DNA of 64,000 nt from Candidatus Poribacteria bacterium (GCA_965208675.1 OZ242351.1:4352001-4416000), one strand, 5' to 3'. Positions 16,657-41,300 are shown, counted from the stretch's first letter. Made by a program: numbers and translations. Notes: a model not told the origin generated them from the letters alone.

Positions 16657-16688
16657 GATCAACCGAGTGAATAACGAGGGCGATAGTT
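16657..16688 (+). repeat. GATC-hairpin micro-element copy
   Basis: GATCAACCGAGTGAATAACGAGGGCGATAGTT. Confidence 0.85.
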
Positions 16689-16690
16689 TT

Positions 16691-17257
16691 TGTAGGTTGG
16701 GTTAAGCGGTGATGACGAAAGGAAGAACATACTCTGCGTGCGTTTCGAAGTTAGAAAGCGTTTGAAATTTTGATAAGATGTAGCGAACCCAACGCTTTTC
16801 GGTAATTGCGAGGTGTTCAGGTCATTGGGCGACGTTCGGAATTACGAAAAGCGTTGGGTTACGCTCTGTGTATCGGGTTTGTACGCGGTTAGGTTTCCGT
16901 AGCGCTATGTAAAATTGTACGTTATTTGGTAATACCCGCTCAACCCAACCTACAAGAAGCTTTATCGCGGCTGGAAGCCGCTCCCACAGTTTTTGTAGGT
17001 TGGGTTAAGCGGTGGTGACGCAAGGAAGAACATACTCTGCGTGCGTTTCGAAGTTAGAAAGCGTTTGAAATTTTGATAAGATGTAGCGAACCCAACGCTT
17101 TTCGGTAATTGCGAGGTGTTCAGGTCATTGGGCGACGTTCGGAATTACGAAAAGCGTTGGGTTACGCTCTGTGTATCGGGTTTGTACGCGGTTAGGTTTC
17201 CGTAGCGCTATGTAAAATTGTACGTTATTTGGTAATACCCGCTCAACCCAACCTACA
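16691..17257. mobile_element. Two tandem ~264-bp REPIN/MITE-like elements (303-bp period)
   Basis: Each runs TGTAGGTTGGGTTAAGCGG...CCGCTCAACCCAACCTACA (16691-16954, 16994-17257), near-identical, with inner inverted pair AGCGAACCCAACGCTTTT / AAAAGCGTTGGGTTACGCT. Confidence 0.85.
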
Positions 17258-17453
17258 AGAAGCTTTATCGCGGCTGAAAGCCGCACCCACAGGGGCGGGT
17301 CGCGATTCGGAGATCGCTCCTACAGGATACAGTGTAGGGTTAAAGAAACGGAGTTTTGAAGAAAAATTCCGTTTCAAGGAAACGCGCCGGTTCGTGTAAG
17401 GTCAAGGTTCTTTTCCTTGCGGCGGGGTGGGTATTGTGCTATAATTTAAGCGG

Positions 17454-17927
17454 GTGAAAAACGTGGCTGCACCAATCAAAATAATCACTGTTAATCGGAA
17501 AGCACGCCACGAGTATCACTTGCAGGATCGGTTTGAAGCGGGGGTTGTGCTTCAGGGCACGGAGGTAAAATCCATCCGCGCCGGCAACTTTAGCCTGACC
17601 GATAGTTACGTGCGGGTTCAAGACGGTGAGACGTTCCTGATTGATGCGCACATTCCCGCTTACACGCACGGAAACCGCGAAAATCACGAACCCAAGCGGG
17701 CGCGCAAGTTGCTGCTGCATCGGCGGGAAATTAAGAAAATCTCGGAAAAGACGAATTCGTCCGGGATGACAATTGTGCCGACCAGGGCCTATTTTAGCGA
17801 CAGTAACGTCAAGGTCGAAATCGCGGTGGCGCGCGGCAAACAAGACTACGACAAGCGCGAAGATATGAAAAAGGATGCGGATAGGCGCGCGATCCAATTA
17901 TACAAACAGCGGTATTCAGCGCGGTAG
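17454..17927 (+). CDS. smpB: SsrA-binding protein SmpB
   Basis: NRKARHEY, EAGVVLQGTEVKSIR, RKLLLHRREI, ARGKQDYDKRE. Confidence 0.97.
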   Translation: MKNVAAPIKIITVNRKARHEYHLQDRFEAGVVLQGTEVKSIRAGNFSLTDSYVRVQDGETFLIDAHIPAYTHGNRENHEPKRARKLLLHRREIKKISEKTNSSGMTIVPTRAYFSDSNVKVEIAVARGKQDYDKREDMKKDADRRAIQLYKQRYSAR

Positions 17928-17973
17928 CAGTGCAAGAACGGGTTTTGACCGCCGGGTTCTTGCGCACCGATTA

Positions 17974-18326
17974 GGGGGTGAAAAGGTTTCGACGGAAGTA
18001 GATGAGATGAAGGTTGCATGCCGAGGTCTCCGCAGGCCTCGTTAAACAGGCGGAACAAACACAACTGCCGATTACGAAGAATTGGCTCTAGCCGCTTAAA
18101 GCGGCTACGTTCGGTTTGCTTGCGGCCCGTCGGGTTAACCGGGCGTCGAGATACGGGCTGTGCGATTTGCTTTTTCTTCAGGGGCAACCCGCGAGATTTA
18201 CTGGGGATAGCTAATGCGAATCCGGCATAAGGGAGCCGCTGCGGTGAAGCATTAAAACTTATGCTAAGCATGTAGTAGCCTTTGTTGAAATGCCTCCGGA
18301 CGCGGGTTCGATTCCCGCCACCTCCA
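17974..18326 (+). ncRNA. ssrA: tmRNA; tag peptide (A)ADYEELALAA* at 18067-18099
   Basis: 5' GGGGGTGAAAAGGTTTCGAC; 3' GCGGGTTCGATTCCCGCCACCTCCA T-arm/acceptor; tag ends LAA; directly after smpB; terminal CCA not encoded. Confidence 0.95.
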
Positions 18327-18666
18327 TCACGTTATTTGGTTCGCTAGTTTGGTTGAAGCACAATCATCATGCGCCGCGCGTGATTACACGCGTTGCGGCT
18401 TGTGCCGTGCCCATTTTTAAGCGCAGTAACAGGATTTAGGTCTAACACTCCTTTTTGGCGTATGATTTACTATATCCATACCGAAAAGGAGGATGCAAGC
18501 CGCGGTTATTTTATGAAAATCGAAAACGATTAGGATTTGCGTTCTCATTTAGCTCACTCGTTCTTTGATAGGCTTGGCAACTGTGCAGCCTAGTTTTGGA
18601 TTTACCATCTGAAAGATTGTTGTGCGTGAATTAGGAAACAACAGTTTCTTGATTAAATGCTGGAGC

Positions 18667-21144
18667 ATGACGGGTGCGGCAATCAAGAGTGCAATTGCGC
18701 TGGCCTTGATCGTCTGCACGATCGGGAGGGTATCCGTTGCCCGCGATCCGGTCGACATACCGGTCGTCACCTTCGATACTGTGGTCGTGACAGCAACCCG
18801 CGTCGGGGAGCCGCTGCAGCAAGTGCCGCTTAGCATCTCGGCGGTGACCGGTGCAGACCTTGAGCAGCGCGCAATCGGGAACCTCACGGAGTTGGCGCGC
18901 TGGATGCCCGGTTTCACCGTGGTCGACCAGGGTGCGCGCGGCAGCAACGCCGTCATTGCCCGCGGACTCAACACGGATTCGTTGAGCGGATCGGAGTTCA
19001 ATGGCAACAACTACAACAATAGCGTCGCCACATATCTCGGGGACATCCCCCTAGCGGTTGACCTGCGGCTGTACGACATTGAGCGGGTCGAAGTGCTACT
19101 CGGACCGCAAGGGACACTGTACGGCGCCGGCACGCTAGCGGGAGCGGTTCGCTACCTGCCGCGCCGGCCCGACACTGGGCGGCGCACGTTCGAGGGACGC
19201 GGCGACCTGTTCGCCCTAGCGCACGGCGGCGTGCCCGGTTCGGATGCCGGTGTCACGTTCAACCTGCCGCTGGTTTCGCGCAAGTTAGCACTACGCGGCT
19301 CGATCGACTACTACGTCGACCCCGGGTTCATAGACTACGACTATCTGCTGCGCACGCCAGGCGTTTCCGAGCCGGAGCCGGACGTGAGCGACCCCTCCAC
19401 GGTGGAGGCAAACCTGCGCAGCGAGCCGGACGCCAACACCGAGGAGACGGTTTCGTCGCGTCTCTCGTTGCTGTGGGAGGCGACCGCGGAGCTGTCGGCT
19501 CTTTTCACCTACCATCTACAGGATCAGCGGGTCGGCGCGCGCCAGATCAACCATGTCAAGTCGTTCGACACCGGCCGCTACGCCGCGGCGCATCGCTACC
19601 TTGAGCCAAACGATCGCAAGAACCAGTTATGGAGCCTGGAACTGACCTGGACGCCGGATTGGGCGGAGTTGACCACCGCCGTCGGCTACTCCCGTTTTAC
19701 GGCGGAGGGTCAGCGCGACCAAACCGACCTGCTGATCCAAGCCTTCGGCATCAAGGGGCTGCTGCCGGCGGAGTTCCCGGCGTTAGCGCAAGCTCAGGCG
19801 TTGGATCCGAACGTCTCCGCCGCCGACCTGACGGCGCAGTTCCGGTCTTTCTCGGCTTACACGCATGAAGACTCCTGGGAGGAGCGTTTCAACTGGGAGA
19901 CGCGGCTAGTCTCGACGGGCGATGGACCGTGGCGCTGGGTCGGCGGCGTCTTTTTCAACAACTACGACAGTAGCGGGACGAGCTTCGAATTCACACCCGG
20001 TCTGACGGAATTTTCGGGCATCACGCCCGTCCGGGGAGGTGTGCCGGTATCCGAGCCGGTCGAGTATTACAGCGTCGACAGCCAGTCAGTAGACGAACGC
20101 GCCCTGTTCGGGGAAATCTCCCGCGGCCTGGGTGACCACTGGCACGTGACGGTCGGCGGCCGCTGGTTTGGCTACCTCATCGACACCGGCAGCCTGACCG
20201 AGTTTCCCTATACGCCGCTGTACAATTCGCCGTTCACCGCCTTCGAGTCCGACGACCGGGGCGTGCTGCTCAAGGCAAGCGCCAGCCACCGTTTCGATGA
20301 CCAGACGAGCGCCTACTTTACCCGTTCGGAAGGCTACCGCATCGGCGGCGGCAACAACTTCCGAATCTGCACGGACGAGGAGATTGCGCTGCTCAGCGAC
20401 GCGGATCCCGGCAACGACCCGCCGCAATCCGGCTGTATCTACGAGGACCAGGCTCTGATTAAGCCCGACAGGACGACCAACTACGAGGTGGGCTTGCGCC
20501 GCTCGTGGAGCAACAGGCGTTTCCTTGCCAGCGGTTCGTTGTTCCACGTGGACTGGACGGACATTCAAGTCGCGGGTGAGACGCCTTTCAGCGCGCAGCC
20601 GATCATTCTGAACGGCGCCGCGGCTATAAGCCGCGGCGTGGAGGTCTCCGGCGCCGCCGGGCTGTCGAGTGCGCTGCACCTGCGCGGGACTTGGTCGTAC
20701 ACGCACGCGGAGCTGAGTCAGGACTCGCCAGGTCTGCTTGATGCCGGCGCGGACACCTTCAAAGGCGACCGCCTGCCGGGCGCGCCGCGGCAGCAAGGCA
20801 GCCTGCTTGCGTCCTACGGCGTGCGGCTCGGCGGCAGAACTACGCTGGACCTGCTGTACGGCTACACCTACGTTGGCGACGTGTTTACACGAATCGGCTT
20901 GCGCGCGGGCGGCGAAGTGCTGCCGGCATACGACCTCCACAACTTCTCGGCGGCAGTCTTGATGGACGGCTGGGCGCTTACGTTCTACGCCGAAAACTTG
21001 TTCGACAAGTACGCCGTAACCGGCGTGCGCCAGACGCCTGATCAGATTGGTACCACGGAGGACGGTTTCCGTGCACGCCGCTACTTCGCCAACGTGCTCA
21101 CCCCGCGGCGAGTGGGTGCGCGCATCCGCTACACGTTTCAGTAA
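18667..21144 (+). CDS. TonB-dependent receptor
   Basis: TonB box DTVVVTATR, plug DIERVEVLLGPQGTLYGAGTLAGAV, ENLFDK, C-terminal PRRVGARIRYTFQ; start uncertain (GTG 18622 alternative). Confidence 0.92.
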   Translation: MTGAAIKSAIALALIVCTIGRVSVARDPVDIPVVTFDTVVVTATRVGEPLQQVPLSISAVTGADLEQRAIGNLTELARWMPGFTVVDQGARGSNAVIARGLNTDSLSGSEFNGNNYNNSVATYLGDIPLAVDLRLYDIERVEVLLGPQGTLYGAGTLAGAVRYLPRRPDTGRRTFEGRGDLFALAHGGVPGSDAGVTFNLPLVSRKLALRGSIDYYVDPGFIDYDYLLRTPGVSEPEPDVSDPSTVEANLRSEPDANTEETVSSRLSLLWEATAELSALFTYHLQDQRVGARQINHVKSFDTGRYAAAHRYLEPNDRKNQLWSLELTWTPDWAELTTAVGYSRFTAEGQRDQTDLLIQAFGIKGLLPAEFPALAQAQALDPNVSAADLTAQFRSFSAYTHEDSWEERFNWETRLVSTGDGPWRWVGGVFFNNYDSSGTSFEFTPGLTEFSGITPVRGGVPVSEPVEYYSVDSQSVDERALFGEISRGLGDHWHVTVGGRWFGYLIDTGSLTEFPYTPLYNSPFTAFESDDRGVLLKASASHRFDDQTSAYFTRSEGYRIGGGNNFRICTDEEIALLSDADPGNDPPQSGCIYEDQALIKPDRTTNYEVGLRRSWSNRRFLASGSLFHVDWTDIQVAGETPFSAQPIILNGAAAISRGVEVSGAAGLSSALHLRGTWSYTHAELSQDSPGLLDAGADTFKGDRLPGAPRQQGSLLASYGVRLGGRTTLDLLYGYTYVGDVFTRIGLRAGGEVLPAYDLHNFSAAVLMDGWALTFYAENLFDKYAVTGVRQTPDQIGTTEDGFRARRYFANVLTPRRVGARIRYTFQ

Positions 21145-21153
21145 ATCTTGGGC

Positions 21154-21208
21154 GATCAACAGAGTGAATAACGAGGGATCAAGCGACTGAATAGGGAGCG
21201 CGATAGTC
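21154..21208 (+). repeat. Tandem GATC-hairpin micro-elements
   Basis: GATC at 21154 and 21177 (23-bp period), ending GCGATAGTC. Confidence 0.85.
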
Positions 21209-21314
21209 CTCTCCTATCTTGTCTTCTTCAGCTTGCCGGAATAATGTGTCGCGATTTGAAGATTGTTCCTACCGTGTTTTGGATGTTTCATTGAGTTAAG
21301 GAGTTTTGGGCAAG

Positions 21315-21701
21315 ATGGCTGAGTTTCAACGCTTGCCATCTCGAATTCGTGATACGGTCACGTCGCAACTGGGCGCAAATGAGCAGATCGAATTATGCTT
21401 TCTCGGTAGATCCAATTTCCTAAGCCCAGATTTTGTTATCATCACTTCACATCGGTTGCTGGTGCTGGAAGAACGCAGTATGGGGAGCTTGGGTGCATCC
21501 TACACCAACATTCGGTGCAACCTTCTGTTTTCTGAAATTTCGGCGGTAAAGCTGAGCCGCGATTGGAAACACCGCCTGTTACGCCAAGCCTGCGTCGAAA
21601 TTGATAAACGTAATAGCGATAGATATCTCATCAATCGCGTGAGTCTGCGTGAAGCCAAGCTGGCGCTTGAATTGATTTCCACACAGATTCAGCCGGGTTG
21701 A
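21315..21701 (+). CDS. Bacterial PH-domain-like protein
   Basis: LGANEQIE...FVIITSHRLLVLE...FSEISAVKL pattern of bacterial PH domains. Confidence 0.6.
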   Translation: MAEFQRLPSRIRDTVTSQLGANEQIELCFLGRSNFLSPDFVIITSHRLLVLEERSMGSLGASYTNIRCNLLFSEISAVKLSRDWKHRLLRQACVEIDKRNSDRYLINRVSLREAKLALELISTQIQPG

Positions 21702-21759
21702 GAATGGGGCTGATTGCCGCCCGAGATGCGCACTGCATTTCAAGTCTGAGATATTAATC

Positions 21760-22428
21760 ATGTTGGAATTTCTCGTTGAACTCACCCGTTGGTATAACCT
21801 GTTTTTCGTCCTACCCGTCCTCGTCGCGCTCATTTATCTATTCTTGCACACAATGACAGCGTCGGACATCGGCGGTTTAGAAGCAGGATTCGGGGATTTG
21901 AGCGTCATAGCGGCAGATCGGCTGCCCGCGGCGCAAGAACGCACTGTATTGGTTCGCTTCTTCACGTTTCTGAATGCGGGCCGTCTCCCTCCATTAATGG
22001 TTGTTGCGCCCTTTTTTCTTTGCTGGGGATTTATCGGGTTTGTATGTAATCACTGGTTCGTCCCGTTGTTCGAGGGCATGATATTGCTAGCCGTACTGGT
22101 TTCAGCCTTGACGGCATTCGTCCTCAGCAGCCTGGTTACGCGGTTGTTGTCGCAAGTCATCGCCTACGTATTCCCGACCGCTCTAGCGGATGAAATTCAG
22201 CGAGCCGACTTGGTGGGAACGGTTGCGACGGTGACGAGCATTGACGTGAATGCGGATTTTGGTATGGCGCGCACGGAAGACGTTCCGTTCAATGTGACGA
22301 TATTCTGCCGGATTGACGAAGGGGAGGCGCGCATTAAACAGGGCCAGCGAGTCGTATTGTGGGATTATGACCCGCAGATGAATTGCTATAAGGTGCAGGA
22401 ATTTAACGAGGATCAACCGACCGAATAG
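21760..22428 (+). CDS. YqiJ/NfeD-like membrane protein with C-terminal OB fold
   Basis: Three TM segments, FLNAGRLPPL, DLVGTVATVT, IKQGQRVVLWDYD; last codons and stop lie in a GATC-hairpin repeat. Confidence 0.75.
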   Translation: MLEFLVELTRWYNLFFVLPVLVALIYLFLHTMTASDIGGLEAGFGDLSVIAADRLPAAQERTVLVRFFTFLNAGRLPPLMVVAPFFLCWGFIGFVCNHWFVPLFEGMILLAVLVSALTAFVLSSLVTRLLSQVIAYVFPTALADEIQRADLVGTVATVTSIDVNADFGMARTEDVPFNVTIFCRIDEGEARIKQGQRVVLWDYDPQMNCYKVQEFNEDQPTE

Positions 22429-22465
22429 GGAGGGATCAACTGAGCGAACAGCGAAGGCGATAGTC
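22411..22465 (+). repeat. Tandem GATC-hairpin micro-elements
   Basis: GATC at 22411 and 22434. Confidence 0.85.
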
Positions 22466-22479
22466 TTTCTTGGTTTTCT

Positions 22480-22686
22480 CTAGGGCGTGTTGACATTTGG
22501 CATCCCGTAGGTTGAATTGAACGGTTAAACGGCAGTCTTTATCAAGTACAAAGGAATCTTTTGTAACACAATCTGTTAGATTGTGATCCGAGCCCGCAAA
22601 CTAACAGTTTGCGCTACTTATATCAGATTATCCAATGGTGACAACGTTTGCCGAATCAGTAGCCTCAAAATGTCAACAGAACCTAG
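22480..22686. mobile_element. ~200-bp MITE with IS5-family-like ends
   Basis: CTAG-GGCGTGTTGACATTT ... AAATGTCAACAGAAC-CTAG: imperfect terminal inverted repeats flanked by CTAG; no transposase. Confidence 0.65.
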
Positions 22687-22898
22687 TTTATAGGCCTGTC
22701 TTCTTCAGTTTGCCGAAATATTATGTCGCGATTCGCAGATCGCTCCTACGGGATACAGTGCTGTGTTAAAGAAACGGCTCATTCAAGAAAAAAATCGGTT
22801 TCAAATACTGAAATACCTCTTGCCTTGTGCATAGTAAAAGGCTTATAATACAGAGCGCATTATTGGTGGACATATTAAAATAACATGGAGGAGCAACC

Positions 22899-23405: not shown

Positions 23406-23577
23406 TCGTTGCGTTTGGTAAACGGAATCGCTGGAATTTTACGCGTTAATCGAATTAATCAGTTACGTATCATGCAGCTATTCAACCTCTGGTATGGTTT
23501 GAGGTTAGCCGCCGCCGTGTCGTGCGCCGACGGCAAATATATGTAAAACCCCTATTTTTGGCAAGGTGGAAAATCCG

Positions 23578-23763: not shown

Positions 23764-23845
23764 CGGGTAGTTGGATAAGTACGGGTTCGGAAGCCGAACC
23801 TGCCGGGATGAAAAAAAATATTTTCGGTTGGGATTTGCGGATATT

Positions 23846-23884
23846 GAGCCGAGGGAGCGCGGTTTTCTCTACTCGGCTTTTTTT
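23846..23884 (+). terminator. Putative intrinsic terminator
   Basis: AGCCGAG...CTCGGCT followed by a T run. Confidence 0.55.
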
Positions 23885-24526: not shown

Positions 24527-24529
24527 AAT

Positions 24530-25069: not shown

Positions 25070-25336
25070 TGTGGAGGATATATGTGAGGGGTGTGCCAAT
25101 GTTGAAGAAACCGAGTTTTGAAGAAAAAACTCGGTTTTAAATGAGGGTCGAGATACGGCGCCTACACCCCCTCCGCCCGTAGGCGCGGCATCTTGCCGCG
25201 CGTATTTCCGAGGTGTGGCGAGATAGCGCGGGTACGTTGAAATTTAGATGAAACTGATGCTTGGTAATATACGTGTTAATCATGGAATCCATATACGCAG
25301 ATTGCGGTTGAATGAACAGAGAGAAGGACACATGTA

Positions 25337-28315: not shown

Positions 28316-29371
28316 TTGCACATCAAACCATCCCAGATTCTCATTCCAATCCTCATCATAGTCATAGCGCTGCTCATTAACGCCCTCATCATGCTCGCGT
28401 GCGGTTACCAACCGGCGGCGGCATTTGCCGCGCTGTTTCAGGGGGCGTTGGGCGGACCGAAACAGGTCACAGAGACGTTTGTCAAAACGTGCCCGTTGCT
28501 GCTGACCGGGTTAGCGGTTGCGTTTGCGTTTCGGTGCGGCGTGTGGAACATTGGCGCCGAGGGGCAGTACCTTGCCGCCGCCTTGGTTGCGACGTGGATT
28601 GGGACATCGATTACATACCTGCCGTCAATTTTGCTGATTCCGCTGGTGCTGGCTGCAGGGTTTGCCGCGGGCGGGTTTTGGGCTGCGATTGCCGGGATAC
28701 TCAAGGCGTACCGCGGCGTCGGCGAAGTGATTAGCACCATCATGCTCAATTTCATTGCCATCCAACTGGTTAGCTATTCCGTTGACGGCGGGCCGCTGCA
28801 GGAGGCGTCGAAATCGTACCAGTGGAGCGATCGGATTGTCTCTAACGCGCTGCTGCCGCATCTCCTGCCGAAATCTTTGATTCCCGGCAACCGCTTCCAT
28901 TTGGGCATTCTGATCGCGTTAATGTCCGCATTGTGCTTGTATGTCGTGCTGTTTCAGACTTCGCTGGGTTATCAGATTCGTGCGGTCGGGAAAAACCAAG
29001 TCGCGGCGCGGGCGGCGGGGATTCAGGTTTCCAAGAATATTATCATTGCGATGTTGATTAGCGGCGGGCTGGCGGGGTTGGCGGGCGCCATTGAGTTGAC
29101 GGGGTTAAGCCCGCATCGGCTCGACCAGAGCGCTCCGGGTTACGGTTATACGGCAATCGCCGTGGCGTTGCTTGGGCGTTTGCACCCGATTGGGGTGGTT
29201 TTTTCGGCGCTGCTTTTTGGGGTTTTGCAAGCCGGGTCGGAGACGATGAAGTTGGAGGCGCAGGTTCCCACAAAATTGACGTGGGTGATTCAAGCCACGG
29301 TGTTGCTGCTGGTGTTGGGGGTTAGTATTTATGAGGCGAGGCGGGAGAAGATGAGGCGTTCAACCGAGTGA
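28316..29371 (+). CDS. ABC transporter permease (nucleoside/sugar, BPD_transp_2 family)
   Basis: PLLLTGLAVA, WNIGAEGQY, EVISTIMLNF, GYQIRAVGKN, GYTAIAVALLG. Confidence 0.9.
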   Translation: MHIKPSQILIPILIIVIALLINALIMLACGYQPAAAFAALFQGALGGPKQVTETFVKTCPLLLTGLAVAFAFRCGVWNIGAEGQYLAAALVATWIGTSITYLPSILLIPLVLAAGFAAGGFWAAIAGILKAYRGVGEVISTIMLNFIAIQLVSYSVDGGPLQEASKSYQWSDRIVSNALLPHLLPKSLIPGNRFHLGILIALMSALCLYVVLFQTSLGYQIRAVGKNQVAARAAGIQVSKNIIIAMLISGGLAGLAGAIELTGLSPHRLDQSAPGYGYTAIAVALLGRLHPIGVVFSALLFGVLQAGSETMKLEAQVPTKLTWVIQATVLLLVLGVSIYEARREKMRRSTE

Positions 29372-29695
29372 ATAGCGAGGGATCAACCGACCGAATAGGG
29401 AGGGCGATAGTCTTCTCCTTTCCGGCCTATTCTAATCTTCTCCCAAACCCAGCGATTGTGTAGTATCGAGGCTAGGAAGCCTCTGCTACAGGTGGAGGTT
29501 GTGGTTAGGACGGCAGTAACCGCCCTCAGTCCCCCCTTGGTAAGAGTGAGGTTGAGGACTCCTAATTCCCCCCCTTACCAAGGGGGGGTTAGATCCTGGG
29601 CGTATTGAGGTTTGGGAGTTTCTGTCACGGTTGTTTACCGGAGTGTGCCTACTACTTTATCGCGGCTGGAAGCCGCTCCCACGAGCGGTAGGGGA
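29358..29695. repeat. Mosaic of GATC-hairpin and REP-like repeats between the two permease genes
   Basis: GATC-hairpin tandem 29358-29412; GAGGCTAGGAAGCCTC; CCCCCCTTACCAAGGGGGG; TCGCGGCTGGAAGCCGCTCCCAC. Confidence 0.8.
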
Positions 29696-31752: not shown

Positions 31753-32460
31753 TGTAGGTTGGGTTAAGCGGTGTAAATGAGAGGCGCGAAAAATGTCGAA
31801 TGGATATCGGTATTCGAATATGTGCGGTAATTGTTAAAGGGTAGCGAACCCAACGATCAACCGACCGAATAGGATCAACCGAGTGAATAACGAGGGCGAT
31901 AGTTTTCAACTACGATAGTCTTGTTTTAATTGCGAGGCGTTCAGGTCACCGCGCGACGTTCGTAAATACGAAAAGCGTTGGGATCAACTGAGCGAACAGC
32001 GAGGGCGATAGTCTTTTCTTCTCCCGTCTTCGGGTACTCCGTGAATCGGGTTTTGTATATCGTTAGGTTTCCCAGAGCGCAACGTGAATTTGTACGTCAT
32101 TTGGTGGAAACCGCTCAACCCAACCTACAAGAACTACAAGAGTTACTATGTCGCGGCTGGAAGCCGCTCCCACAGGTGGTGGTTGAGGTGAAGACGGCAG
32201 TAACCCCCCTCAGTCCCCCCTTGGTAAGGGGGGAGGTGAAAGAGATGCCCTCCTTGGTAGGTAAGGGTTAGGTTGTGGTCTCCTAATTCCCCCCCCCTTA
32301 CCAAGGGGGGGCGAGGGGGGGGTTAGATTCCGGGCGTATTGAGGTTTGGGAGTTTCTGTCCCGGTTGGTTACCGGAGTGTACCTACTACTTTATCGCGGC
32401 TGGAAGCCGCTCCCACAGCGGCTCCAACTCTAACGGTAGGCGCGGTTTCCTAACCGCGCT
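31753..32460. repeat. REPIN-like element (31753-32129) interrupted twice by GATC-hairpin elements, followed by a REP mosaic
   Basis: Same terminal repeats as the 16691 copy; inserts at 31855-31920 and 31982-32013; further palindromes to 32460. Confidence 0.85.
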
Positions 32461-32465
32461 TGGCG

Positions 32466-33632: not shown

Positions 33633-34622
33633 TCAAATGTGCTGAATTGGAATACCGATTTTTCCGACGGACGCGCCGGTGGCGACCATCGGGTAGCCCG
33701 GGTGCGACCAGAAGATGCCGCTCTCCGGCGCGCGGATAGTCTCTTGCGGATGACCGAAGGCGTCGCAAATTTCGGCGATGGGCTGGTATGCCTCGACGCA
33801 GTCGTATAGGTTGGCTTTATAGTGGACGAATCCGCCGCAGTTGCTCAGGAGGGTGACGAACCGGTCGATGACCACCTGCTGATCAGGAATTTCGGGGTCG
33901 CCGTCGACGAACCCGAAATGTTTGAGAACATTGAGCACGCCGCGCACGCCTTTTGCGATGCTCGCCGGGTTCCATCCGCGGCAGCCGCCGAGTTCGGGAT
34001 CGATGGTTGGGATACCGACCTCCGGCGCGGCTTGCGCCAGTTGCCCCTTGGGTCCTTTTTTATCGAAGATGTAGCCGATGCCGAAGATTCGAGCCAGTGC
34101 CAGACAAGCATCGTGCTGCGGGTGGTTCCGCGAAACGCGGACGCGGACTTCGTCAATCATGGGGTCGATCCCGCCTTGGTGGAGGTCGATGCAGTAGTCC
34201 GATTGTTGGACGAGTCCGTTAAAGAGACGGTGGGCGATGCGTTCGCTCGACGTGCCGTCAGATTTGCCGGGGAAGCACCGGTTCATTTTCATCTGATCGA
34301 CGGGGCTGTGGGCTTGTTGGGCGTGGAATGCGTGGAAATTGACGATGGGCACAGCGATAATGCGGCCCCGCAAATGCGCTGGGGAAATTTTGCGGATAAC
34401 CTCGTGGATAACTGCGATGCCGTTGAGTTCGTCGCCGTCGCTTATGGATTGGAGATAGAGCGTTTTAGCCCCCTGTTTTCCGTTGATGAGCACGACGGGC
34501 AGCCGCACGGGCGTGCCGTCCGGCAGCGATCCGACGGTGATGTAGTCTTCAACGCGTTCGCCCGGTTTTGCGGTGATGGAGCCTACGGAGAGGCGGTTAT
34601 TAGTTATCCACATTTTATCCAC
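33633..34622 (-). CDS. Succinylglutamate desuccinylase/aspartoacylase (M14-like) family protein
   Basis: SDGDELNG, MNRCFPGKSDGTSSER, IDLHQG, PELGG; start uncertain. Confidence 0.85.
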   Translation of the reverse strand: MDKMWITNNRLSVGSITAKPGERVEDYITVGSLPDGTPVRLPVVLINGKQGAKTLYLQSISDGDELNGIAVIHEVIRKISPAHLRGRIIAVPIVNFHAFHAQQAHSPVDQMKMNRCFPGKSDGTSSERIAHRLFNGLVQQSDYCIDLHQGGIDPMIDEVRVRVSRNHPQHDACLALARIFGIGYIFDKKGPKGQLAQAAPEVGIPTIDPELGGCRGWNPASIAKGVRGVLNVLKHFGFVDGDPEIPDQQVVIDRFVTLLSNCGGFVHYKANLYDCVEAYQPIAEICDAFGHPQETIRAPESGIFWSHPGYPMVATGASVGKIGIPIQHI

Positions 34623-34623
34623 A
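34604..34623 (+). promoter_or_regulatory. Pair of perfect DnaA boxes
   Basis: TTATCCACA at 34604-34612 and 34615-34623. Confidence 0.6.
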
Positions 34624-34724
34624 ATTGGGTTACAATTTTTTGGGGGTGGCGGCGTAAATCAAGCTGCCTGGACTGTGATTTTTGTGATTGAATGATGGGT
34701 TGTGATTATAGAGAACACATCTCG

Positions 34725-34945
34725 CTGTAGGAGCGATCTCCGAATCGCGACACACGTCCTGTGGGAGCGATCAACTGAGCGAATAGCGAAGGATCAACCG
34801 ACCGAATAGGGAGGGCGATAGTCTTTCCTAGTCTTCTCCTTTCCAGTCTTTTCTTGTCTTTTCCGAAACCCAACGATTGTGTAATATCGAGGCTAGGAAG
34901 CCTCTCCCACAGGGGAGGGTCGTGATTCGGAGATTGGTCCTAAGG
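34725..34945. repeat. REP mosaic with tandem GATC-hairpin elements
   Basis: GTAGGAGCGATCTCCGAATCGCGA; GATC at 34769 and 34792; GTCTT-rich tail. Confidence 0.8.
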
Positions 34946-34949
34946 GGTA

Positions 34950-35151
34950 AGCGATTGCGATTCCCGGCGATGGTTTCGACCACTGCCGTTTACTTACGGC
35001 GTTCGGCTTCCTTCCGACTGATGAACCTGCCAGTTTATGCATCGCGACCGCCCGGCTTGCTGCCAACAACCTTTTCTACAGCCCGTTGAGCTTGTCTTTT
35101 TGTGAGTTTGCCGCGTTTGGGCGGGTTCTTAACGGTTCTTTCTCGTCCCAC
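34950..35151 (-). pseudogene. Paralog of the small basic protein with two in-frame TAA codons
   Basis: Manual translation MGRERTVKNPPKRGKLTKRQAQRAVEKVVGSKPGGRDA*TGRFISRKEAERRK*TAVVETIAG; AAGGTGAT RBS; colinear with 35305-35556; 3' end approximate. Confidence 0.7.
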
Positions 35152-35304
35152 TATTATCACCTTTTTGAATTATGTTTTAAACAACCGACGGTTGGGCTCA
35201 ATGGGGGTAAAATATGTCCGTTTGCCGTAAGATGGATTTCGGGGAAGACTAACGCCATCGCTATGGACTCCGATGACCCCGCTCCACCCAACTTACAAGG
35301 GCTG

Positions 35305-35556
35305 CTATCCTCGTTTATTCGGCCTCGTGATGGTCTCAACCACCGCCGTATCCTTCCGGCGTTCGGCTTCCTGACAACTGATAAACCTGCCCGTTGCTGC
35401 GTCGCGACCGACCTTAATGGTCGTTACATCATGATTCGCCGAAGACTTGCCGCCGCCGTTTTTGCCGAAAACGACCTCCCGTACGGCTCGTTTGATTTCG
35501 CTTCTTTTGAGCTTACCTTTTTTGGGTGGATACTTGACGATTCTTGGTCTTGCCAC
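35305..35556 (-). CDS. Small basic protein with GRDAxTGRF...TAVVET motif
   Basis: Perfect GGAGGTGA RBS, GTG start; duplicated in degenerate form downstream. Confidence 0.7.
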   Translation of the reverse strand: MARPRIVKYPPKKGKLKRSEIKRAVREVVFGKNGGGKSSANHDVTTIKVGRDAATGRFISCQEAERRKDTAVVETITRPNKRG

Positions 35557-35569
35557 GTAATCACCTCCT

Positions 35570-35633
35570 TGAATTGTGAATCAAAGGGACAATTTAGAAA
35601 GACATTATCATTATAGTTTTTGGGTAAGCTCAT
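35570..35633 (-). pseudogene. 5' remnant of a gene starting MSLPKNYNDNVFLNCPFD
   Basis: VFxNCPFD resembles the start of a widespread hypothetical family (from memory); similarity stops after ~21 codons at the next gene's RBS. Confidence 0.4.
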
Positions 35634-35749
35634 GATTTGCTCAGTTTATCTGTTAAATCCCTTTGGTCATAAAATTCAGGATAATATTATGCCATATTTG
35701 AAGGACATACATCAACGAAAACCAATTGCGAAAAAGCCGGCAATCAGGA

Positions 35750-35921
35750 GATCAACTGAGCGAACAGCGAAGGATCAACCGACCGAATAGGGAGGGCGAT
35801 AGTCTTTTCTTCTCCCGTCTTCGGGTTCTCCGTGGATTGGGATTTGTACGTCGTTTAGGTTTCTCAGAACGCGGCGTAAAATCGAAGGTCACTCGGTGAA
35901 AACCGCTCTACCCAACCTACA
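35750..35921. repeat. Tandem GATC-hairpin elements plus 3' half of a REPIN
   Basis: GATC at 35750 and 35773; ends ACCCAACCTACA. Confidence 0.8.
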
Positions 35922-36594
35922 AGAACTTACGGGCGACGACGACGGCGATGGGGCCTCGGCGCCAAACGCATTCGGCGTCGAATCCGGCGGTGCGGACGGC
36001 GTCGAGTTCAGCCTCCAGCGGGAAATAGGTGTCCTCCTCCGCCCATTGTGCGAAATATTCGCGCGCCCGCGGCTCCGCAATGCCGGAAGCTGCCATGTGA
36101 TCCATCCAGCTTCGCCAAGTCGCCTCGCGTTCCGGGGGCGCGGCTGGCATCGTCGCGTCGGCGTTGACGAAGACGCCGCCGGCTCGGAGCGCACCGTAAA
36201 TCCGCCGGTACAGGGCGCGCTTCTCGCCGATTGCCGGTATATGGTGGAGCGCCAACGACGCTGCGGCGGCATCGCAGGGCGGCAACGGCGCATGGAACGA
36301 CGACTCGGTGAATCGGGCGCGCCCGTCGAATCGCGCGAGCCGCGACCGGGCTTGCGCCAGCATGCCACCGTCGATGTCGATGAGTTCCACCGTCCCGGAA
36401 GCGTTCGCCGAGAGAATCGCCTCCGACAAGGCGCCGGTGCCCCCGCCGAGGTCGAGCGTCAAGCCCGGTTTTGCGCGGACAATTTCACGCGCGGCGACGG
36501 CGATCATCGTCTCGTAACCCGGAATGAAGCGGCGAATACTTTCGTCGTAAGTGCGGATTTCAATGCCGAGGTGGCGGTGTACGGAGTGGTTCAT
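35917..36594 (-). CDS. Class I SAM-dependent methyltransferase
   Basis: YDESIRRFIPGYETM, LDLGGGTGAL, SLALHHIP, LRAGGVFVNAD; stop TAG lies in the REP end. Confidence 0.88.
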   Translation of the reverse strand: MNHSVHRHLGIEIRTYDESIRRFIPGYETMIAVAAREIVRAKPGLTLDLGGGTGALSEAILSANASGTVELIDIDGGMLAQARSRLARFDGRARFTESSFHAPLPPCDAAAASLALHHIPAIGEKRALYRRIYGALRAGGVFVNADATMPAAPPEREATWRSWMDHMAASGIAEPRAREYFAQWAEEDTYFPLEAELDAVRTAGFDAECVWRRGPIAVVVARKFL

Positions 36595-36631
36595 TGGCGT
36601 TTGAAGAAGGATGTGAGGTTTGGGGTTTGAG

Positions 36632-36661
36632 TTGACATTGTAACAAATCCAGTGGTATAAT
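36632..36661 (+). promoter_or_regulatory. Consensus sigma70 promoter, copy 1
   Basis: TTGACA-18-TATAAT with TG extension. Confidence 0.75.
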
Positions 36662-36715
36662 CGCAACCATTAGGGGAGTTGCAGTAGGGCCGCTTTTGGT
36701 TTGGAGGAGTGAAAA

Positions 36716-36942
36716 ATGGAGGTTTTTGCCAGCTACATACCCGTCGTTCTTATCGTGCTAGCCATAATTGCCAGTTATTGGCGAACGAGCACACAGTTGA
36801 GAGTAATAATGATGAATATGGTGACTAAAGACGACATTAGGGATCTGAAAGATGAATTCAGGGATTTAAGAAATGAGATGAAGGACATGAAAAATGACAT
36901 CTAGTAACTGAGGACAATGTAGAACCCGCGCAGCCGAGTTAA
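36716..36942 (+). pseudogene. N-anchored coiled-coil paralog 1, truncated by internal deletion/frameshift (ORF 36716-36904)
   Basis: MEVFASYIPVVLIVLAII start as in the paralogs; stop at 36904; C-terminal LVTEDNVEPAQPS* survives in another frame to 36942. Confidence 0.75.
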
Positions 36943-36984
36943 TCAGCCGTTACCGTTACATGGAATGACCTCTATTGAACCGCC

Positions 36985-37014
36985 AGCCGTTGGTATATGC
37001 CAGCGGCTTTTTTT
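36985..37014 (+). terminator. Intrinsic terminator, copy 1
   Basis: AGCCGTTGGTA-ta-TGCCAGCGGCT plus T run. Confidence 0.75.
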
Positions 37015-37031
37015 GTGGATTGGATAGGAGG

Positions 37032-37320
37032 GATCAACTGAGCGAATAGCGAAGGATCAACCGACCGAATAGGGAGGGCGATAGTCTTCCATCTTGTATT
37101 TGAAACCGAGTTTTTCTTCAAAACTCGGTTTCTTTAACGCAACGGTTGTTTGCCGGAATATGCCTGCTACTTTATCGCGGCTGGAAGCCGCTCCCACAAG
37201 GAATGGCTCGCGATTCGGAAATCGCTCCTACAGAGAAGTTTGCCTCTTAATCATAGCCCATCATTTAATCATACAAATCACAGTTCAGACACTAAGAATT
37301 CCCCTCAACCCAACCTACAA
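37032..37320. repeat. GATC-hairpin tandem and REP mosaic
   Basis: GATC at 37032 and 37055; GAAACCGAGTTTT...AAAACTCGGTTTC hairpin; further REPs. Confidence 0.8.
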
Positions 37321-37338
37321 ACAATATTGGAATTTGAG

Positions 37339-37368
37339 TTGACATGGTATCAAATCGAATGGTATAAT
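37339..37368 (+). promoter_or_regulatory. Consensus sigma70 promoter, copy 2
   Basis: TTGACA-18-TATAAT with TG extension. Confidence 0.75.
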
Positions 37369-37420
37369 CGCGTCCACAAGTCGAGGGGCAGAAGGATTCT
37401 TCGGATTGGAGGAGTGACAA

Positions 37421-37960
37421 ATGGAAGTTTTTGCCAGCTACATACCCGTCGTTCTTATCGTGCTAGCCATAATTGCCGGTTATTGGCGAACAAACATCCA
37501 AATTGGCGGTATGAACATGCAAATTGGCGGTATGATGGCAAATATGGCGACGCAAGAAGACATTAGGGATCTGAAAAATATAGTGGCGAATATGGCGACA
37601 AAAGAAGACATTCGGAATCTGAATAATATAGTGGCGAATATGGCGACAAAAGAAGACATTCGGAATCTGAATAATATAGTGGCGAACATGGCGACAAAAG
37701 AAGAACTTCGGGATATAAAAGAAGACATTCGGGAGATAAAAGAGGAATTCAGGTACATGAGAGATGAAATGAAGGACATAAGAAATGACATCAGGGCGCT
37801 GGACGACCGAATGAATCGTTTTGAAACGCATGTGACTCAACAGTTCGCCGAGATTAAGGGGGAAATCAGCGATTTGAAACGGGATGTCAATACGCTTCAA
37901 CAATCGTATGTAAATCACCTAATTACAGAGCATAACATCAAACCCGCACAGCCGAGTTAA
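37421..37960 (+). CDS. N-anchored coiled-coil paralog 2 with 14-aa MATKED repeats
   Basis: N-terminal TM helix; 42-bp tandem repeats (IVANMATKEDIRNL); heptad coiled coil; GGAGGAG RBS. Confidence 0.85.
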   Translation: MEVFASYIPVVLIVLAIIAGYWRTNIQIGGMNMQIGGMMANMATQEDIRDLKNIVANMATKEDIRNLNNIVANMATKEDIRNLNNIVANMATKEELRDIKEDIREIKEEFRYMRDEMKDIRNDIRALDDRMNRFETHVTQQFAEIKGEISDLKRDVNTLQQSYVNHLITEHNIKPAQPS

Positions 37961-38002
37961 TCAGCCGTTACCGTTACATGGAATGACCTCTATTGAACCG
38001 CC

Positions 38003-38033
38003 AGCCGTTGGTAATATGCCAGCGGCTTTTTTT
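38003..38033 (+). terminator. Intrinsic terminator, copy 2
   Basis: Same hairpin plus T run as copy 1. Confidence 0.75.
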
Positions 38034-38137
38034 GTGGATTGGGATCAACCGACCGAATGCATTTGAAACCGAGTTTTTTCTTCAAAACTCAGTTTCTTTA
38101 ACGCACCGCCAAAACTCCGGTAACGCCGCACGCTGAC

Positions 38138-38166
38138 TTGAAAACTGTTGAATTTTATGGTATAAT
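38138..38166 (+). promoter_or_regulatory. Orphan near-consensus sigma70 promoter
   Basis: TTGAAA-17-TATAAT with TG extension; no convincing CDS downstream. Confidence 0.55.
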
Positions 38167-38499
38167 TTTATCATCATATGCGGCGCCCCGACGCCCTTCA
38201 AAGCGCGGTCGAGTTGCCCATTACCCGCGTCCCCGCCGAACGGCTTCCGAACGGAATGCCGGCAAGGCGCGGGCGAGGTTGACGCCGGTCCCATGCTCCA
38301 CGGTGTACGGAGCTACCTAGGATGGCGGAATCAACACACCCGGCATCCGCTTCAAAAATGAGCATTCTCAACTTATTTTTTTAAATGCTCACAAATGCTC
38401 AACCCCGCAAACCCGCGCCCTGACTAGCCTAAAGCCCATTTTCGCTTATTTTCGCATGTTTCAAATGCTCACATAATGCTCAAAACCAAAACCCAAATT

Positions 38500-38915
38500 T
38501 ACTATCCCTCAACCCGACCTACAAGAGCCCCACCGACCTACAAGAGCCTCAAAAAATCCTCCCCCTTTCCAAGGGGGATCAAGCGACTGAATAGGGAGCG
38601 CGATAGTCTTAACTAGTCTTCAAAACTCGGTTTCTTTTAACGCTTTGCTACACCCTGCGGTCGCGTAGGTTTGGGTGAGGGATTGGGTCGAGTACGCGAC
38701 GGGAGAGTTGCGATTCGGAGATCGCTCCTACAGGGGTGGAGGAGGACAACACATACCGCAAAAATTTCCCCCTTTTTTTATGGACTGTAAAAACTGTAAT
38801 TTTCCTTGAAAATTGTGCGATTGAATGCCGCGCTGTTGATATTCGCCGCTCGCCGCCCTGAACCCTTATAGTTATTGAAAGTTGAATTGCGCGAATCCGC
38901 TCTACCCAACCTACA
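38500..38915. repeat. REP mosaic with GATC-hairpin element (38577-38608)
   Basis: Multiple CCTACAA REP ends and GCGATTCGGAGATCGCTCCTAC. Confidence 0.75.
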
Positions 38916-38934
38916 AACAATACTGGAAATTGAG

Positions 38935-38964
38935 TTGACATTGTATTAAATCGAATGGTATAAT
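38935..38964 (+). promoter_or_regulatory. Consensus sigma70 promoter, copy 3
   Basis: TTGACA-18-TATAAT with TG extension. Confidence 0.75.
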
Positions 38965-39017
38965 CGCGTCCACAAAGTCGAGGGGCAGAAGGATTTCTCG
39001 GAGTGGAGGAGTGACAA

Positions 39018-39350
39018 TTGGAAGTTTTTGCCAGCTACATACCCGTCGTTCTAATAGTGCTAGCCATATTTGCGGCTAATTGGCGAACGACCGTACAGTT
39101 TGGACATATAACGATGAATATGGCGACTCGAGAAGATATTAAGGATTTGAGAGATGAAATCAAGGACATGAGAAGCGACATTAAAGCTCTGGACGCCCGC
39201 ATGAATCGTTTTGAAAACCATGTGACTCAACAATTCGCCGAAATTAGAGGTGAAATCAGCGATTTGAAACGGGATGTCAATACGCTTCAACAATCGTATA
39301 TAAACCACCTAATAACAGAGCACAACGTGAAACCCGTGAAACCGAGTTAA
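39018..39350 (+). CDS. N-anchored coiled-coil paralog 3
   Basis: TTG start with the same RBS; same N- and C-termini as paralog 2 with a single MATRED unit. Confidence 0.85.
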   Translation: MEVFASYIPVVLIVLAIFAANWRTTVQFGHITMNMATREDIKDLRDEIKDMRSDIKALDARMNRFENHVTQQFAEIRGEISDLKRDVNTLQQSYINHLITEHNVKPVKPS

Positions 39351-39386
39351 TCCGCTTGTGCAAGAAATGCCCTGTATCGCACCGCC

Positions 39387-39417
39387 AGCCGTTGGTATAT
39401 GCCAACGGCTTTTTTTT
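39387..39417 (+). terminator. Intrinsic terminator, copy 3
   Basis: AGCCGTTGGTA-ta-TGCCAACGGCT plus T run. Confidence 0.75.
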
Positions 39418-39938
39418 GTGGATTGAGAGCGGCCGACCGAATTCATTTGAAACCGAGTTTTTCTTCAAAACTCGGTTTCTTTAATGCGACGGTTGTTTGC
39501 CGGAGAATGCCTACTACTTTATCGCGGCTAGGAAGCCGCTCCCACAGGTATACGAGTTGTGGGTCGCGATTCGGAGATCGCTCCTACAGGGGTGGCGCAG
39601 GACAACACATTCCGCAAAAATTTCCCCCTTTTTTTATGGACTGTAAAAACTGTAATTTTGGCATTTTTTGTAGGTTGGAATCAGCCGACCGAATTCATTT
39701 GAAACCGAGTTTTTCTTCAAAACTCGGCTTCCATCGCCGAGGTTTGTGCCATGTTGATGCTCATGGCAACCTCCATAGCCTGTCCCTCGCTGCCAAAAGC
39801 GAGAACCTCAAACGCAATGATAGATAATTAACTTGCTACCCGCTGTTTTGTCTTGATTTCTTGTTTACATAGCAAGTATAATTTAGCAATTCTGGTAAAT
39901 CGCGAAACTTTCCTCCTAGCCAAAAGAGGTCTCATACA

Positions 39939-40208
39939 ATGGAAGTCCTTGAAACTATTCGACCTTGGGTTGTACCTATCATTGCTATTGTCTCATTTGG
40001 CATAGCATTTGTTCCGAAATTTAATACGCGGTTTCGGGTCTGGGTAACGGGCCCGTTGGAAACTAAAGTTGATTTGTTGTCTGAAAAAGTCGACAATCTA
40101 TCAGAACAAATGAAAGAGATGCGTTCTGACATGAAAAACGAACATGCCATGTTGCTGAAGGCTTTTACTGACCATCTTATTCACCAGCATGGGCACAAGC
40201 CTGAGTAG
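39939..40208 (+). CDS. Small N-anchored coiled-coil protein with His-rich C-terminus
   Basis: MEVLETIRPWVVPIIAIV TM, short coiled coil, AFTDHLIHQHGHKPE; AGAGGT RBS, upstream TATAAT, downstream terminator. Confidence 0.75.
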   Translation: MEVLETIRPWVVPIIAIVSFGIAFVPKFNTRFRVWVTGPLETKVDLLSEKVDNLSEQMKEMRSDMKNEHAMLLKAFTDHLIHQHGHKPE

Positions 40209-40232
40209 CCAAACGGATTTTCATATCGAATT

Positions 40233-40261
40233 AAGCCGGGGGCAATGTTCCCGGCTTTTTT
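40233..40261 (+). terminator. Intrinsic terminator
   Basis: AAGCCGGGGGCA-a-TGTTCCCGGCTT plus T run. Confidence 0.75.
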
Positions 40262-40344
40262 GTTGACGCAAAGATTCCCGTTTGTTGCGAGGTAGCCCGC
40301 CGCCAAGGCATGTCACTATCCGATATAATTCCCCAAAATGTACC

Positions 40345-41300
40345 ACCCCTCAACCCAACCTACAAGAGCCCCAAAAAATCCTCCCCCTTTTTTTTATGGA
40401 CTGTAAAAACTGTAATTTTGCTTGAAATGTGCGGGTTTGATTTTCGTTCTGGTGATAATAGCCTCTCGACGCCGTGAGCACTCCTAGCTTTTGTAGGTTG
40501 GGTTAAGCGGAATAAATGAGAGACGCGAAAGATGCCGAATGGATATCGGTATTTGAACATGTGCGGTAATTGTTAGGGGTAGCGAACCCAACGCTTTTCG
40601 TTAATTGGGTGGTGTTCTGGTCATCGGGCGACGTTCGTAATTATGAAAAGCGTTGGGTTACGCTCCGTGGATCGGATATTGGATGTCGTTAGGTTTCCCA
40701 GAGCGTCACGTGGACTTGTACATCATTCGGTGAAATCCGCTCAACCCAACCTACAAAAGCTGTCCGTGGTCGTAGGGGCGGGGTTCCCCCGCCCATTGAG
40801 CGGCTGGAGGCGGCGAATTCCCGACCATACACATTTAATATGGGAACAAAGGGTTGGGGAACCCAACCCCTACGAATAATCGAATATTGGATGTCGTAAG
40901 GTTTCCCAGCGCGCCACGTGAAATTGTACATCATTCGATGAAATCCGCTCTACACCAACCTACAAAAGCTGTCCGTGGTCGTAGGGGATCAACCGACCGA
41001 ATAGGGAGGGATCAACTGAGCGAATAGCGAAGGCGATAGTCTTGTCTTCTCCGACACCCATCGATTGTATAGTATCGCGGCTGGGAAGCCGCTCCTACAA
41101 GAACTGGGAAAGTCGAATCGCGGCTGGAAGCCCCTCCCACAGGAGCGGGATTGCGATGCCCGGCGCAACGACAACAATAAATCCACATTTTTATGAAACC
41201 GCGATTTGGGGCAAAGCGTATTTTATTTGTACAATGTCAGGTTCAAGATCTAACTGAATAAAATGAAACCGAGTTTATTCTTCAAAACTCGGTTTCTAGC
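40345..41300. repeat. Large REP mosaic including REPIN 40492-40755 and GATC-hairpin tandem 40987-41041
   Basis: Full REPIN, duplicated 3' half (~40885-40986), GTAGGGGCGGGGTTCCCCCGCCC and GGGTTGGGGAACCCAACCCCTAC REPs. Confidence 0.8.

Follow-up and report, generated by a model that had tools for sequence, protein, structure and literature searches.

The best-known example of bacterial mobile DNA that is long-lived and passed on vertically is provided by repetitive extragenic palindromes (REPs) together with the REP-associated tyrosine transposases (RAYTs), and it is still unclear how these enzymes select their substrates and move them. The ends of IS200/IS605 insertion sequences are imperfect hairpins recognised on one strand, with no terminal inverted repeats; the linker motifs of the Escherichia coli BIMEs and the pneumococcal BOX elements are short modules between or beside REPs, with a variable number of internal modules; and IS1397 is a full insertion sequence with a transposase, which targets REPs. 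Here we analyse a 64,000-nucleotide stretch of DNA from a Candidatus Poribacteria bacterium (GCA_965208675.1, OZ242351.1:4352001-4416000; hereafter the window, positions being counted from its first letter), in which a sequence-only reading had noticed a strand-polarised 32-nt micro-element with a covarying hairpin that invades REPs. The element carries a strand-specific, selected hairpin with a protein-like recognition pattern, and it turns over fast between close relatives; its mobility and the enzyme behind it we infer. We favour, with about even confidence, the view that RAYT-type HUH enzymes move it as a REP-like hairpin module that is non-autonomous. The genome, called G000 below, is a single contig and 96.4% complete.

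The repeating unit is 23 nt long and consists of a GATCAA head and a 17-nt hairpin, x-GA-y-GAAYA-y'-GA-x', in which two base pairs, a tandem of G.A pairs and two further base pairs are capped by a GAAYA loop (GNRA-like, but one base longer). A single terminal GCGATAG tail is shared by one to four unlike units and is continued by TCTT(C) and often by more AGTCTTC-like repeats in the genus of this bacterium (g1), and by AGATCC in a second genus (g11). Just upstream of GATCAA and about 12 nt past the hairpin, sequence information is at background. The pattern GATCAANNGANNGAAYANNGA, with up to two mismatches allowed, matches 19 times in the window, always on the + strand and exactly at the positions first reported, against a chance expectation of 0.26 +/- 0.50 (maximum 2 in 100 dinucleotide-preserving shuffles). 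An nhmmer profile built from copies in other genomes recovers the same 19, adds the partial unit at 38043 and yields no further match in the 64 kb, so that the 12 loci together have 19 full units and a partial one, without exception on the + strand (Table 1). The sequence-only reading, which had counted about 19 copies at 12 loci, is thereby borne out, also in its details: a GTTC head in the unit at 29358, an A.G mismatch in the stem of that at 21154, the truncated 18-nt unit at 31855, the tandem period of 23 nt, the tail GCGATAGTC followed by pyrimidine-rich AGTCTTC-like repeats, and the four REP junctions, where GATCAA directly follows GTAGCGAACCCAAC (31855), GCGTTGG (31982), CTGTGGGAGC (34769) and GTAGGG (40987).

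The same reading had considered that an adapter or assembly artefact might lie behind the element. This is ruled out, because independently assembled contigs contain elements or break at them: contigs from the probable source sample have identical flanks and break inside elements, and contig X5, from a sponge metagenome of another study, spans the 29358 locus. None of these independently assembled contigs shows a clean joined (empty-site) form; they break at elements.

Table 1. Element loci and other features of the window. G001, G002 and G003 are other genomes compared.
Feature	Position	Strand	Detected by	Surroundings
Single unit (GATCAA + CCGAGTGAATAACGAGG) with tail GCGATAGTT	16657..16688	+	pattern, nhmmer	truncated REP1 head (GTAGGTTTGG) upstream, full REP1 downstream
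tmRNA gene	17974-18329	+	Rfam RF00023, 184 bits	between two element loci
Two unlike units with tail GCGATAGTC	21154..21208	+	pattern match	starts 10 nt past the stop codon of a TonB-dependent receptor gene; equivalent junction in G002 has one unit only, of a different variant
Two units with tail	22411..22465	+	pattern match	ORF 21760-22428 ends within the first unit, the TAG of the GAATAG loop now being its stop; site without element in G001, G002 and G003
Two units (first head GTTCAA) with tail	29358..29412	+	pattern match	overlaps the 3' end of a permease gene; site without element in G002 and G003
REP1 reverse arm (GTAGCGAACCCAAC) without its CTAC	31841..31854	+		abuts the element at 31855
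Truncated 18-nt unit, full unit and tail GCGATAGTT	31855..31904	+	pattern, nhmmer	
Single unit with tail	31982..32013	+		joined to GCGTTGG (REP1 arm fragment)
REP2 head CTGTGGGAGC	34759..34768	+		ends where the hairpin of REP2 itself would begin
Two units with GCGATAGTC and a long (AGTCTT-like) pyrimidine tail	34769..34864	+		on the 3' side, REP1 reverse-arm fragment (34865-34874) and inverted REP2 (34886-34912)
Two units with tail	35750..35804	+	pattern match	
Two units with tail	37032..37086	+	pattern, nhmmer	
Partial unit, 16 nt	38043..38058	+	nhmmer	cut short by a hairpin repeat that resembles a terminator (AAACCGAGTTTT..AAAACTC(A/G)GTTT)
Single unit with tail	38577..38608	+		
GTAGGG (REP head), two units and tail	40981..41041	+	pattern match	inverted REP2 at 41074-41101 on the 3' side
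Terminator-like high-copy repeat (AAACCGAGTTTT..loop..AAAACTCGGTTT)	25105-25140; 38066-38098; 41260-41298			
Open reading frame (ORF) of 2345 aa	41769-48806	+		directly downstream of the last element locus

Covariation was assessed in 111 distinct elements from several Poribacteria records, collected with a search pattern that left the stem positions free. In these units 94.8% of the 444 stem cells pair, compared with 60.3 +/- 1.6% after shuffling, and none of 500 shuffles reaches the observed value, so that the hairpin with its invariant tandem G.A, as proposed from the sequence alone, is confirmed and its covariation is strong. Double-sided changes occur in 187 cells, compared with 41 in shuffles, and pairing is 22-58% in controls with the 3' partner slid by one to three columns. 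All four stem pairs change compensatorily, with three to five pair types each, and the set comprises 77 distinct hairpins. The 190 strict units of this genome (760 stem cells) contain 660 Watson-Crick, 58 G.T, 12 A.C and 30 other combinations; the ratio of G.T to A.C is thus 58:12 here and 49:11 in the 111-unit set, and this excess means that the written strand folds, not its complement. Even in an unforced profile search there is hardly any variation in head, loop and tail or in the two G.A pairs.

Such a fold could also belong to RNA: a transcribed hairpin might bind a protein and stabilise, process or mark transcripts, the spread of the element being secondary. RNA energy parameters return exactly the hairpin first described (-5.9 to -6.4 kcal/mol for single elements, -13.4 for a doublet), together with a closing stem formed by the head ATC and the tail GAT in single elements and by the palindromic GATC heads of successive units in arrays, whereas DNA parameters do not; wobbles of the G.U type are tolerated in the stems, and for many REPs transcription and a role as RNA are held plausible in PMC3733652. 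The RNA z-scores are weak, however (-0.85 to -1.8), and canonical terminator hairpins belong to another repeat family. The element also matches no Rfam 15 family, either at gathering scores in the window, where the tmRNA gene gives the only match, or at E up to 10 in 34600-35100, where two matches at chance level appear.

Several other candidates were considered and dropped on sequence grounds, with no dedicated test, namely a hammerhead core, a K-turn, promoter hexamers and Dam/SeqA sites, religated GATC restriction fragments, which would give arrays in both orientations, and a peptide-coding reading, the 23-nt period being no multiple of three. Integron attC sites and CRISPR arrays were rejected as well, the loci being scattered and the units abutting at 23 nt without spacers (no search was made for integrase or cas genes). 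The GCGATAG tail could not be assigned to the AAGCCCCAGCGGGGCGACAGGT repeat family: 233 of 947 GCGATAG sites follow the hairpin, and the rest are background-like.

Directly before the sharp 5' edge at GATCAA at least nine host contexts are found, for the most part REP-type hairpins. In REP1 (GTAG-GTTGGGTWGAGCGG) the element stands after several points of the forward arm or directly after the reverse arm; at 12 loci of G000 the forward arm precedes it and the reverse arm follows 14-25 nt past the hairpin. REP2 (GTRGGAGC followed by a hairpin) is another host, and at least 18 copies of a 131-copy hairpin family (CCCCTCCTTACCAAGGAGGGG + TTAGGGGAGGTT) carry the element right after ..AAGGAG(G), where it replaces their usual continuation. 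This family, ATTCCCCTCCTTACCAAGGAGGGG followed by TTAGGGGAGGTT, consists of a hairpin with a conserved 3' extension and occurs in both orientations throughout G000. REPs of the GTAGGCGGG and GTAGGGTGG types, in g11 and G003, keep both host arms, and the element fills the apex. The commonest hairpin variant is the first unit at 43 loci, in at least nine kinds of 5' context, and the ..GAGC context of REP1 has 18 different units among 34 loci. Variant and host therefore assort independently, and this supports the earlier claim of a discrete module that enters other repeats and is not part of one composite. Before GATCAA there is a weak A-R-S preference (A at -3 in 129 of 227 loci, G/A at -2, G/C at -1), which resembles the unit's own 3' end, GA-NN, and would explain the arrays of unlike units; it should be taken as a lead only, because the loci share host repeats and are not independent.

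Genome-wide, G000 has 381 element matches at 308 loci (247 single, 50 double, 10 triple and 1 quadruple), 61 of which are thus arrays of two to four units. The loci are scattered between ordinary housekeeping genes, and based on rough ORF-based gene calls, on which all gene-direction and extragenic figures given here rest, 220 of 227 good loci lie outside genes. That the copies keep to the + strand regardless of gene direction holds within the window, and the independence is genuine because the minus-strand genes between them are real, carrying clear Pfam domains (GFO/IDH/MocA oxidoreductases, an AstE/AspA-type enzyme, a methyltransferase). The bias proposed to follow the replication strand, however, is lost at the scale of the genome, where 212 matches lie on the + and 169 on the - strand and orientation is not associated with local GC skew at 2.5-50 kb, a weak test in a genome without a clear two-replichore pattern; in the syntenic cluster of G003, 10 of 12 matches are on the opposite strand. 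What stands is a local coherence: neighbours less than 3 kb apart share their strand in 60 of 68 pairs, against 39.0 +/- 4.2 expected from gene context (reached in 0 of 2000 simulations). It is therefore to a local cluster, and not to the replication strand, that the one-strandedness of the window belongs. At 14 of the 227 loci an inverted copy lies no more than 110 nt away, in tail-to-tail doublets with a mostly fixed offset of 34-35 nt. As to the skew itself, its cumulative curve in G000 has a minimum at 3.27 Mb and a maximum at 4.79 Mb without a clean two-replichore shape, and the skew and the strand bias of the genes reverse jointly from one block of about 100 kb to the next.

Orientation is moderately related to gene direction, and this bears again on an RNA function. 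The upstream gene reads into the element at 147 of 220 intergenic loci, and sense exceeds antisense by 112:40 between co-directional genes; on the other side, one third of the loci either lie antisense or occupy divergent promoter regions, and about as many loci are found in divergent regions (33) as in convergent ones (35). Furthermore, sister species do not share the loci at orthologous genes, so that the element is no gene-specific regulator. Taken with the fold data, we consider it unlikely that the element is primarily an RNA signal.

In a survey of 176 Poribacteria genomes by exact-match counts, high copy numbers were found in all four genomes of g1 (103-123 matches each) and in all ten of g11, a genus of a different family (145-494 each); 10 matches were counted in G024, five genomes have one or two, and the remaining 156 have none. 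Among the matches listed in a scan of contigs (at least 140 loci in 80 records), all come from Poribacteria, and viral contigs gave no match. G002, about 90-95% identical and syntenic to G000, has three elements in the region where the window has 12 loci. In 400 kb of further synteny, 4 of the 17 real G002 matches have an element at the aligned position of G000, 4 align to element-free sequence and 9 lie in unalignable intergenic blocks (four additional matches, inside conserved genes, are due to chance). Where junctions are shared, units may differ through compensatory changes, or one genome has an extra unit on either side of the common one.

Turnover of this kind might need no dedicated enzyme, if the module spread among repeat-rich intergenic regions when forks stall and templates are switched, by gene conversion, or when REP clusters undergo illegitimate recombination; hairpins would then persist only because copying favours the sequences that form them. 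Element-bearing intergenic regions are replaced wholesale between genomes of about 90-95% identity, with no simple insertions; the 5' junction cuts host repeats at several points; neighbours agree in strand beyond expectation, the G003 cluster lies mostly the other way round, and most loci differ between G000 and G002, neither of which has the RAYT gene described below for G001. The near-invariance of head, G.A pairs, loop and tail across two families, with stems that compensate, is in contrast the hallmark of a specific protein recognising the element. GATCAA forms a sharp edge, and only two genera make up the range of the element, even though REPs and RAYTs occur widely across the phylum. 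An enzyme-free origin thus seems improbable to us.

With regard to candidate enzymes, G000 has four Y1/HUH genes, none of which is flanked by the element; the only copy near any of them lies about 680 nt from the L009-type gene, inside a different repeat. RVT_1, Y2_Tnp (IS91-type) and TnpB gave no match in G000, and the genes between head-in element pairs of this genome include no nuclease or transposase. The RVT_1 search did match in control genomes; the Y2_Tnp search matched none of them, and its blank is therefore weak. An addition of short hairpin units templated by a reverse transcriptase, or in a telomerase-like manner, would suit the 23-nt tandem period and the stuttering AGTCTTC tails. 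We nevertheless regard it as very improbable, in view of the RVT_1 result in a genome of this completeness and of the different variants within one array, since one template alone would not produce them. Of the suggestion that an HUH nuclease or a reverse transcriptase spreads the element, only the first half stands, HUH enzymes being the sole plausible agents found; in a sister species a RAYT is flanked by elements.

This is a 180-aa protein of G001, a classical RAYT by its score on NCBIfam NF047646 (201.6 bits, cut-off 80) and its match to the E. coli TnpA-REP structure (PDB 4er8, E = 3.9e-40). On either side of the gene there is an element, at distances of 118 nt and 129 nt, the two being inverted and with their heads toward it, and the left-hand one at least is a composite of REP1 and element. 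The probability of such flanking by chance is about 4e-5, a rough figure that does not allow for clustering (181 matches in 4.7 Mb). The ortholog in G003 (81% identical) has four elements on one side only, 256-800 nt away, and 45% identical genes in G032 and G038 have elements 62-150 nt away, again one-sided; the HUH genes flanked by the motif that had been anticipated are hence found in G001, on both sides, and not among the four Y1 genes of G000. About 1.5 kb from the intact gene of G001, at G001:C1:3184721-3185031, are fragments of a second, degraded RAYT copy, whose two pieces are 86-95% identical.

In both G001 and G003 the gene belongs to a region syntenic to 33.6-41.9 kb of the window, the doublet at 35750 aligns with the doublet flanking the G001 gene, and a gene of this type was not found in G000 or G002. 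For these reasons the window is probably a former RAYT neighbourhood, its same-strand cluster being the residue of local copying around the gene, which may explain why copies are so dense here; at the 35750 site G002 has the second unit only, a difference of 23 nt. A second type of RAYT, L010, is flanked by REP2-like repeats in G000; its truncated counterpart in G003 adjoins GTAGGCGGG-type REPs bearing the element, and L010-type genes of g11 lie near similar composites. As composites adjoin both G001-type and L010-type genes, the element resides inside the REPs of at least two RAYT clades. The L009 gene of G000 (G000:C1:2029831-2030328) is an IS200-like Y1 gene with arrays of AAGCCCCAGCGGGGCGACAGGT and its complement on both sides. 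Its protein is 81-86% identical to full-length g11 copies and only 68% to the copy of G001, in the same genus, and these identities suggest transfer between the two genera which also share the micro-element.

How, then, does the element compare with the described systems? The closest are the REP/REPIN elements with their RAYT (TnpA-REP), such as the E. coli BIMEs and the Pseudomonas REPINs, as portrayed in PMC3479197 and PMC3733652. Like them, the element is a short, imperfect extragenic hairpin in hundreds of copies, its structure is formed by one strand only, its stem has an obligatory non-Watson-Crick imperfection, and there is a conserved unpaired sequence at the foot of the hairpin; it adjoins RAYT genes, inverted on both sides in G001, and forms mosaic arrays with other REPs as well as some inverted tail-to-tail doublets (14 of 227). 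It differs in having a GATCAA head and a GCGATAG tail, GTAG being present only in adjacent host REPs, and in its much shorter unit of 23 nt with an interrupted stem of 4 bp. Unlike variants are stacked head to tail and have a single tail in common, compensatory changes diversify the stems even inside one genome in place of a near-identical population, the element sits inside or against REPs of several families with different RAYT clades, and no single cognate RAYT co-occurs with it. In contrast to REPINs, inverted doublets are not the main form, head-to-tail arrays being found at 61 of 308 loci. The element thus resembles REPs, yet it differs in tag, length, stacking, compensation within the genome and nesting in other REPs.

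With IS200/IS605 the element shares the imperfect hairpin on one strand, the lack of terminal inverted repeats and of any target duplication seen, and a weak preference to follow a short motif (A-R-S), which is not a fixed tetra- or pentanucleotide; it has a single hairpin and not a left and a right end, there is no full-length copy flanked by TnpA(IS200), and its orientation has no GC-skew bias. Compared with BIME linkers and BOX, it is similarly a module beside REPs, and differs by its own covarying hairpin and its host-independent assortment. IS1397 likewise uses the hairpins of other repeats as landing sites; the micro-element is 23-32 nt long and non-coding. A limited literature search on Poribacteria repeats and on REP/RAYT systems revealed no description of the element, and in the REP papers found there was no tandem G.A.

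Movement by RAYT-type enzymes, the reading we favour, would proceed as follows. The element would act as a single-stranded hairpin on the written (top) strand, and it sits in the apical part of REP hairpins or at their 3' foot, parts that would be exposed when a REP is extruded; RAYTs, being HUH enzymes of the Y1 type, may then copy it on single-stranded DNA. It could travel by two routes, either with the composite of REP and element carried as a REP, or with a RAYT joining the 5' end of the element to another exposed 3' end. According to Messing et al., TnpA-REP cleaves single-stranded DNA and requires an imperfect hairpin, correction of the mismatch abolishing binding, and joining to any 3'-OH after cleavage is regarded as possible in principle (PMC3479197). 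The essential imperfection of the REP stem reported there fits the invariant tandem G.A of the element.

A number of observations weigh against such an enzyme-driven movement. The element is without the GTAG or CGTC tag, DNA energy parameters fail to predict its hairpin, and its orientation is not linked to GC skew. Pairs of empty and filled sites, which had been expected, were not found in clean form in G001, G002 or G003, because the downstream intergenic DNA differs as well: where an element is present in one genome only, that DNA is replaced too, and in the nearest case, at G000 4040171 compared with G002, only TTAGG is common after the insert. The G001-type RAYT is present in 12 of 41 genomes, among them the element-free G011, G012, G018 and G023, and absent from the element-bearing G000, G002, G024 and G035, the last of which has 543 element matches at up to one mismatch. 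Four g5 genomes have a 72-73% identical RAYT with plain REP1 flanks and no element, and REP1, not the micro-element, may hence be the true substrate of this enzyme. The Y1 genes of the L009 and L010 types are widespread, also in element-free genomes, and were rejected as cognate enzymes; no gene was found in strict co-occurrence with the element. Since G000 and G002 differ at most loci and both lack the G001-type gene, another enzyme or recombination would have to account for these differences.

A bolder version of RAYT-driven movement, rather doubtful in our eyes, would make the element a hyperparasite of REPs: a single-stranded DNA hairpin of 23 nt, and then the smallest bacterial mobile unit so far seen, which lands in exposed REP loops and feet, borrows whichever RAYT is bound there, prefers sites that mimic its own 3' end and has crossed between two Poribacteria families sharing sponges.

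Two observations concern the neighbourhood of the copies in the window. The genes for a YqiJ-like protein and for a component of a branched-chain permease terminate inside elements (22411-22433 and 29358-29371, respectively), and the C-termini of both differ from those of the element-free counterparts in G001, G002 and G003. A separate high-copy repeat, AAACCGAGTTTT..AAAACTCGGTTT, resembles a canonical intrinsic terminator (three copies in Table 1) and has a very high summed contig depth in all four runs compared.

For the study of REPs and RAYTs the element offers natural covariation that exposes the features of recognition, with invariant head, tandem G.A, pentaloop and tail next to free stems, and a defined 32-nt substrate for probing what RAYTs recognise. 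Its repeats break short-read assemblies of Poribacteria genomes, and it marks gene flow between uncultured sponge symbionts. It is, furthermore, a possible case of one repeat exploiting another.

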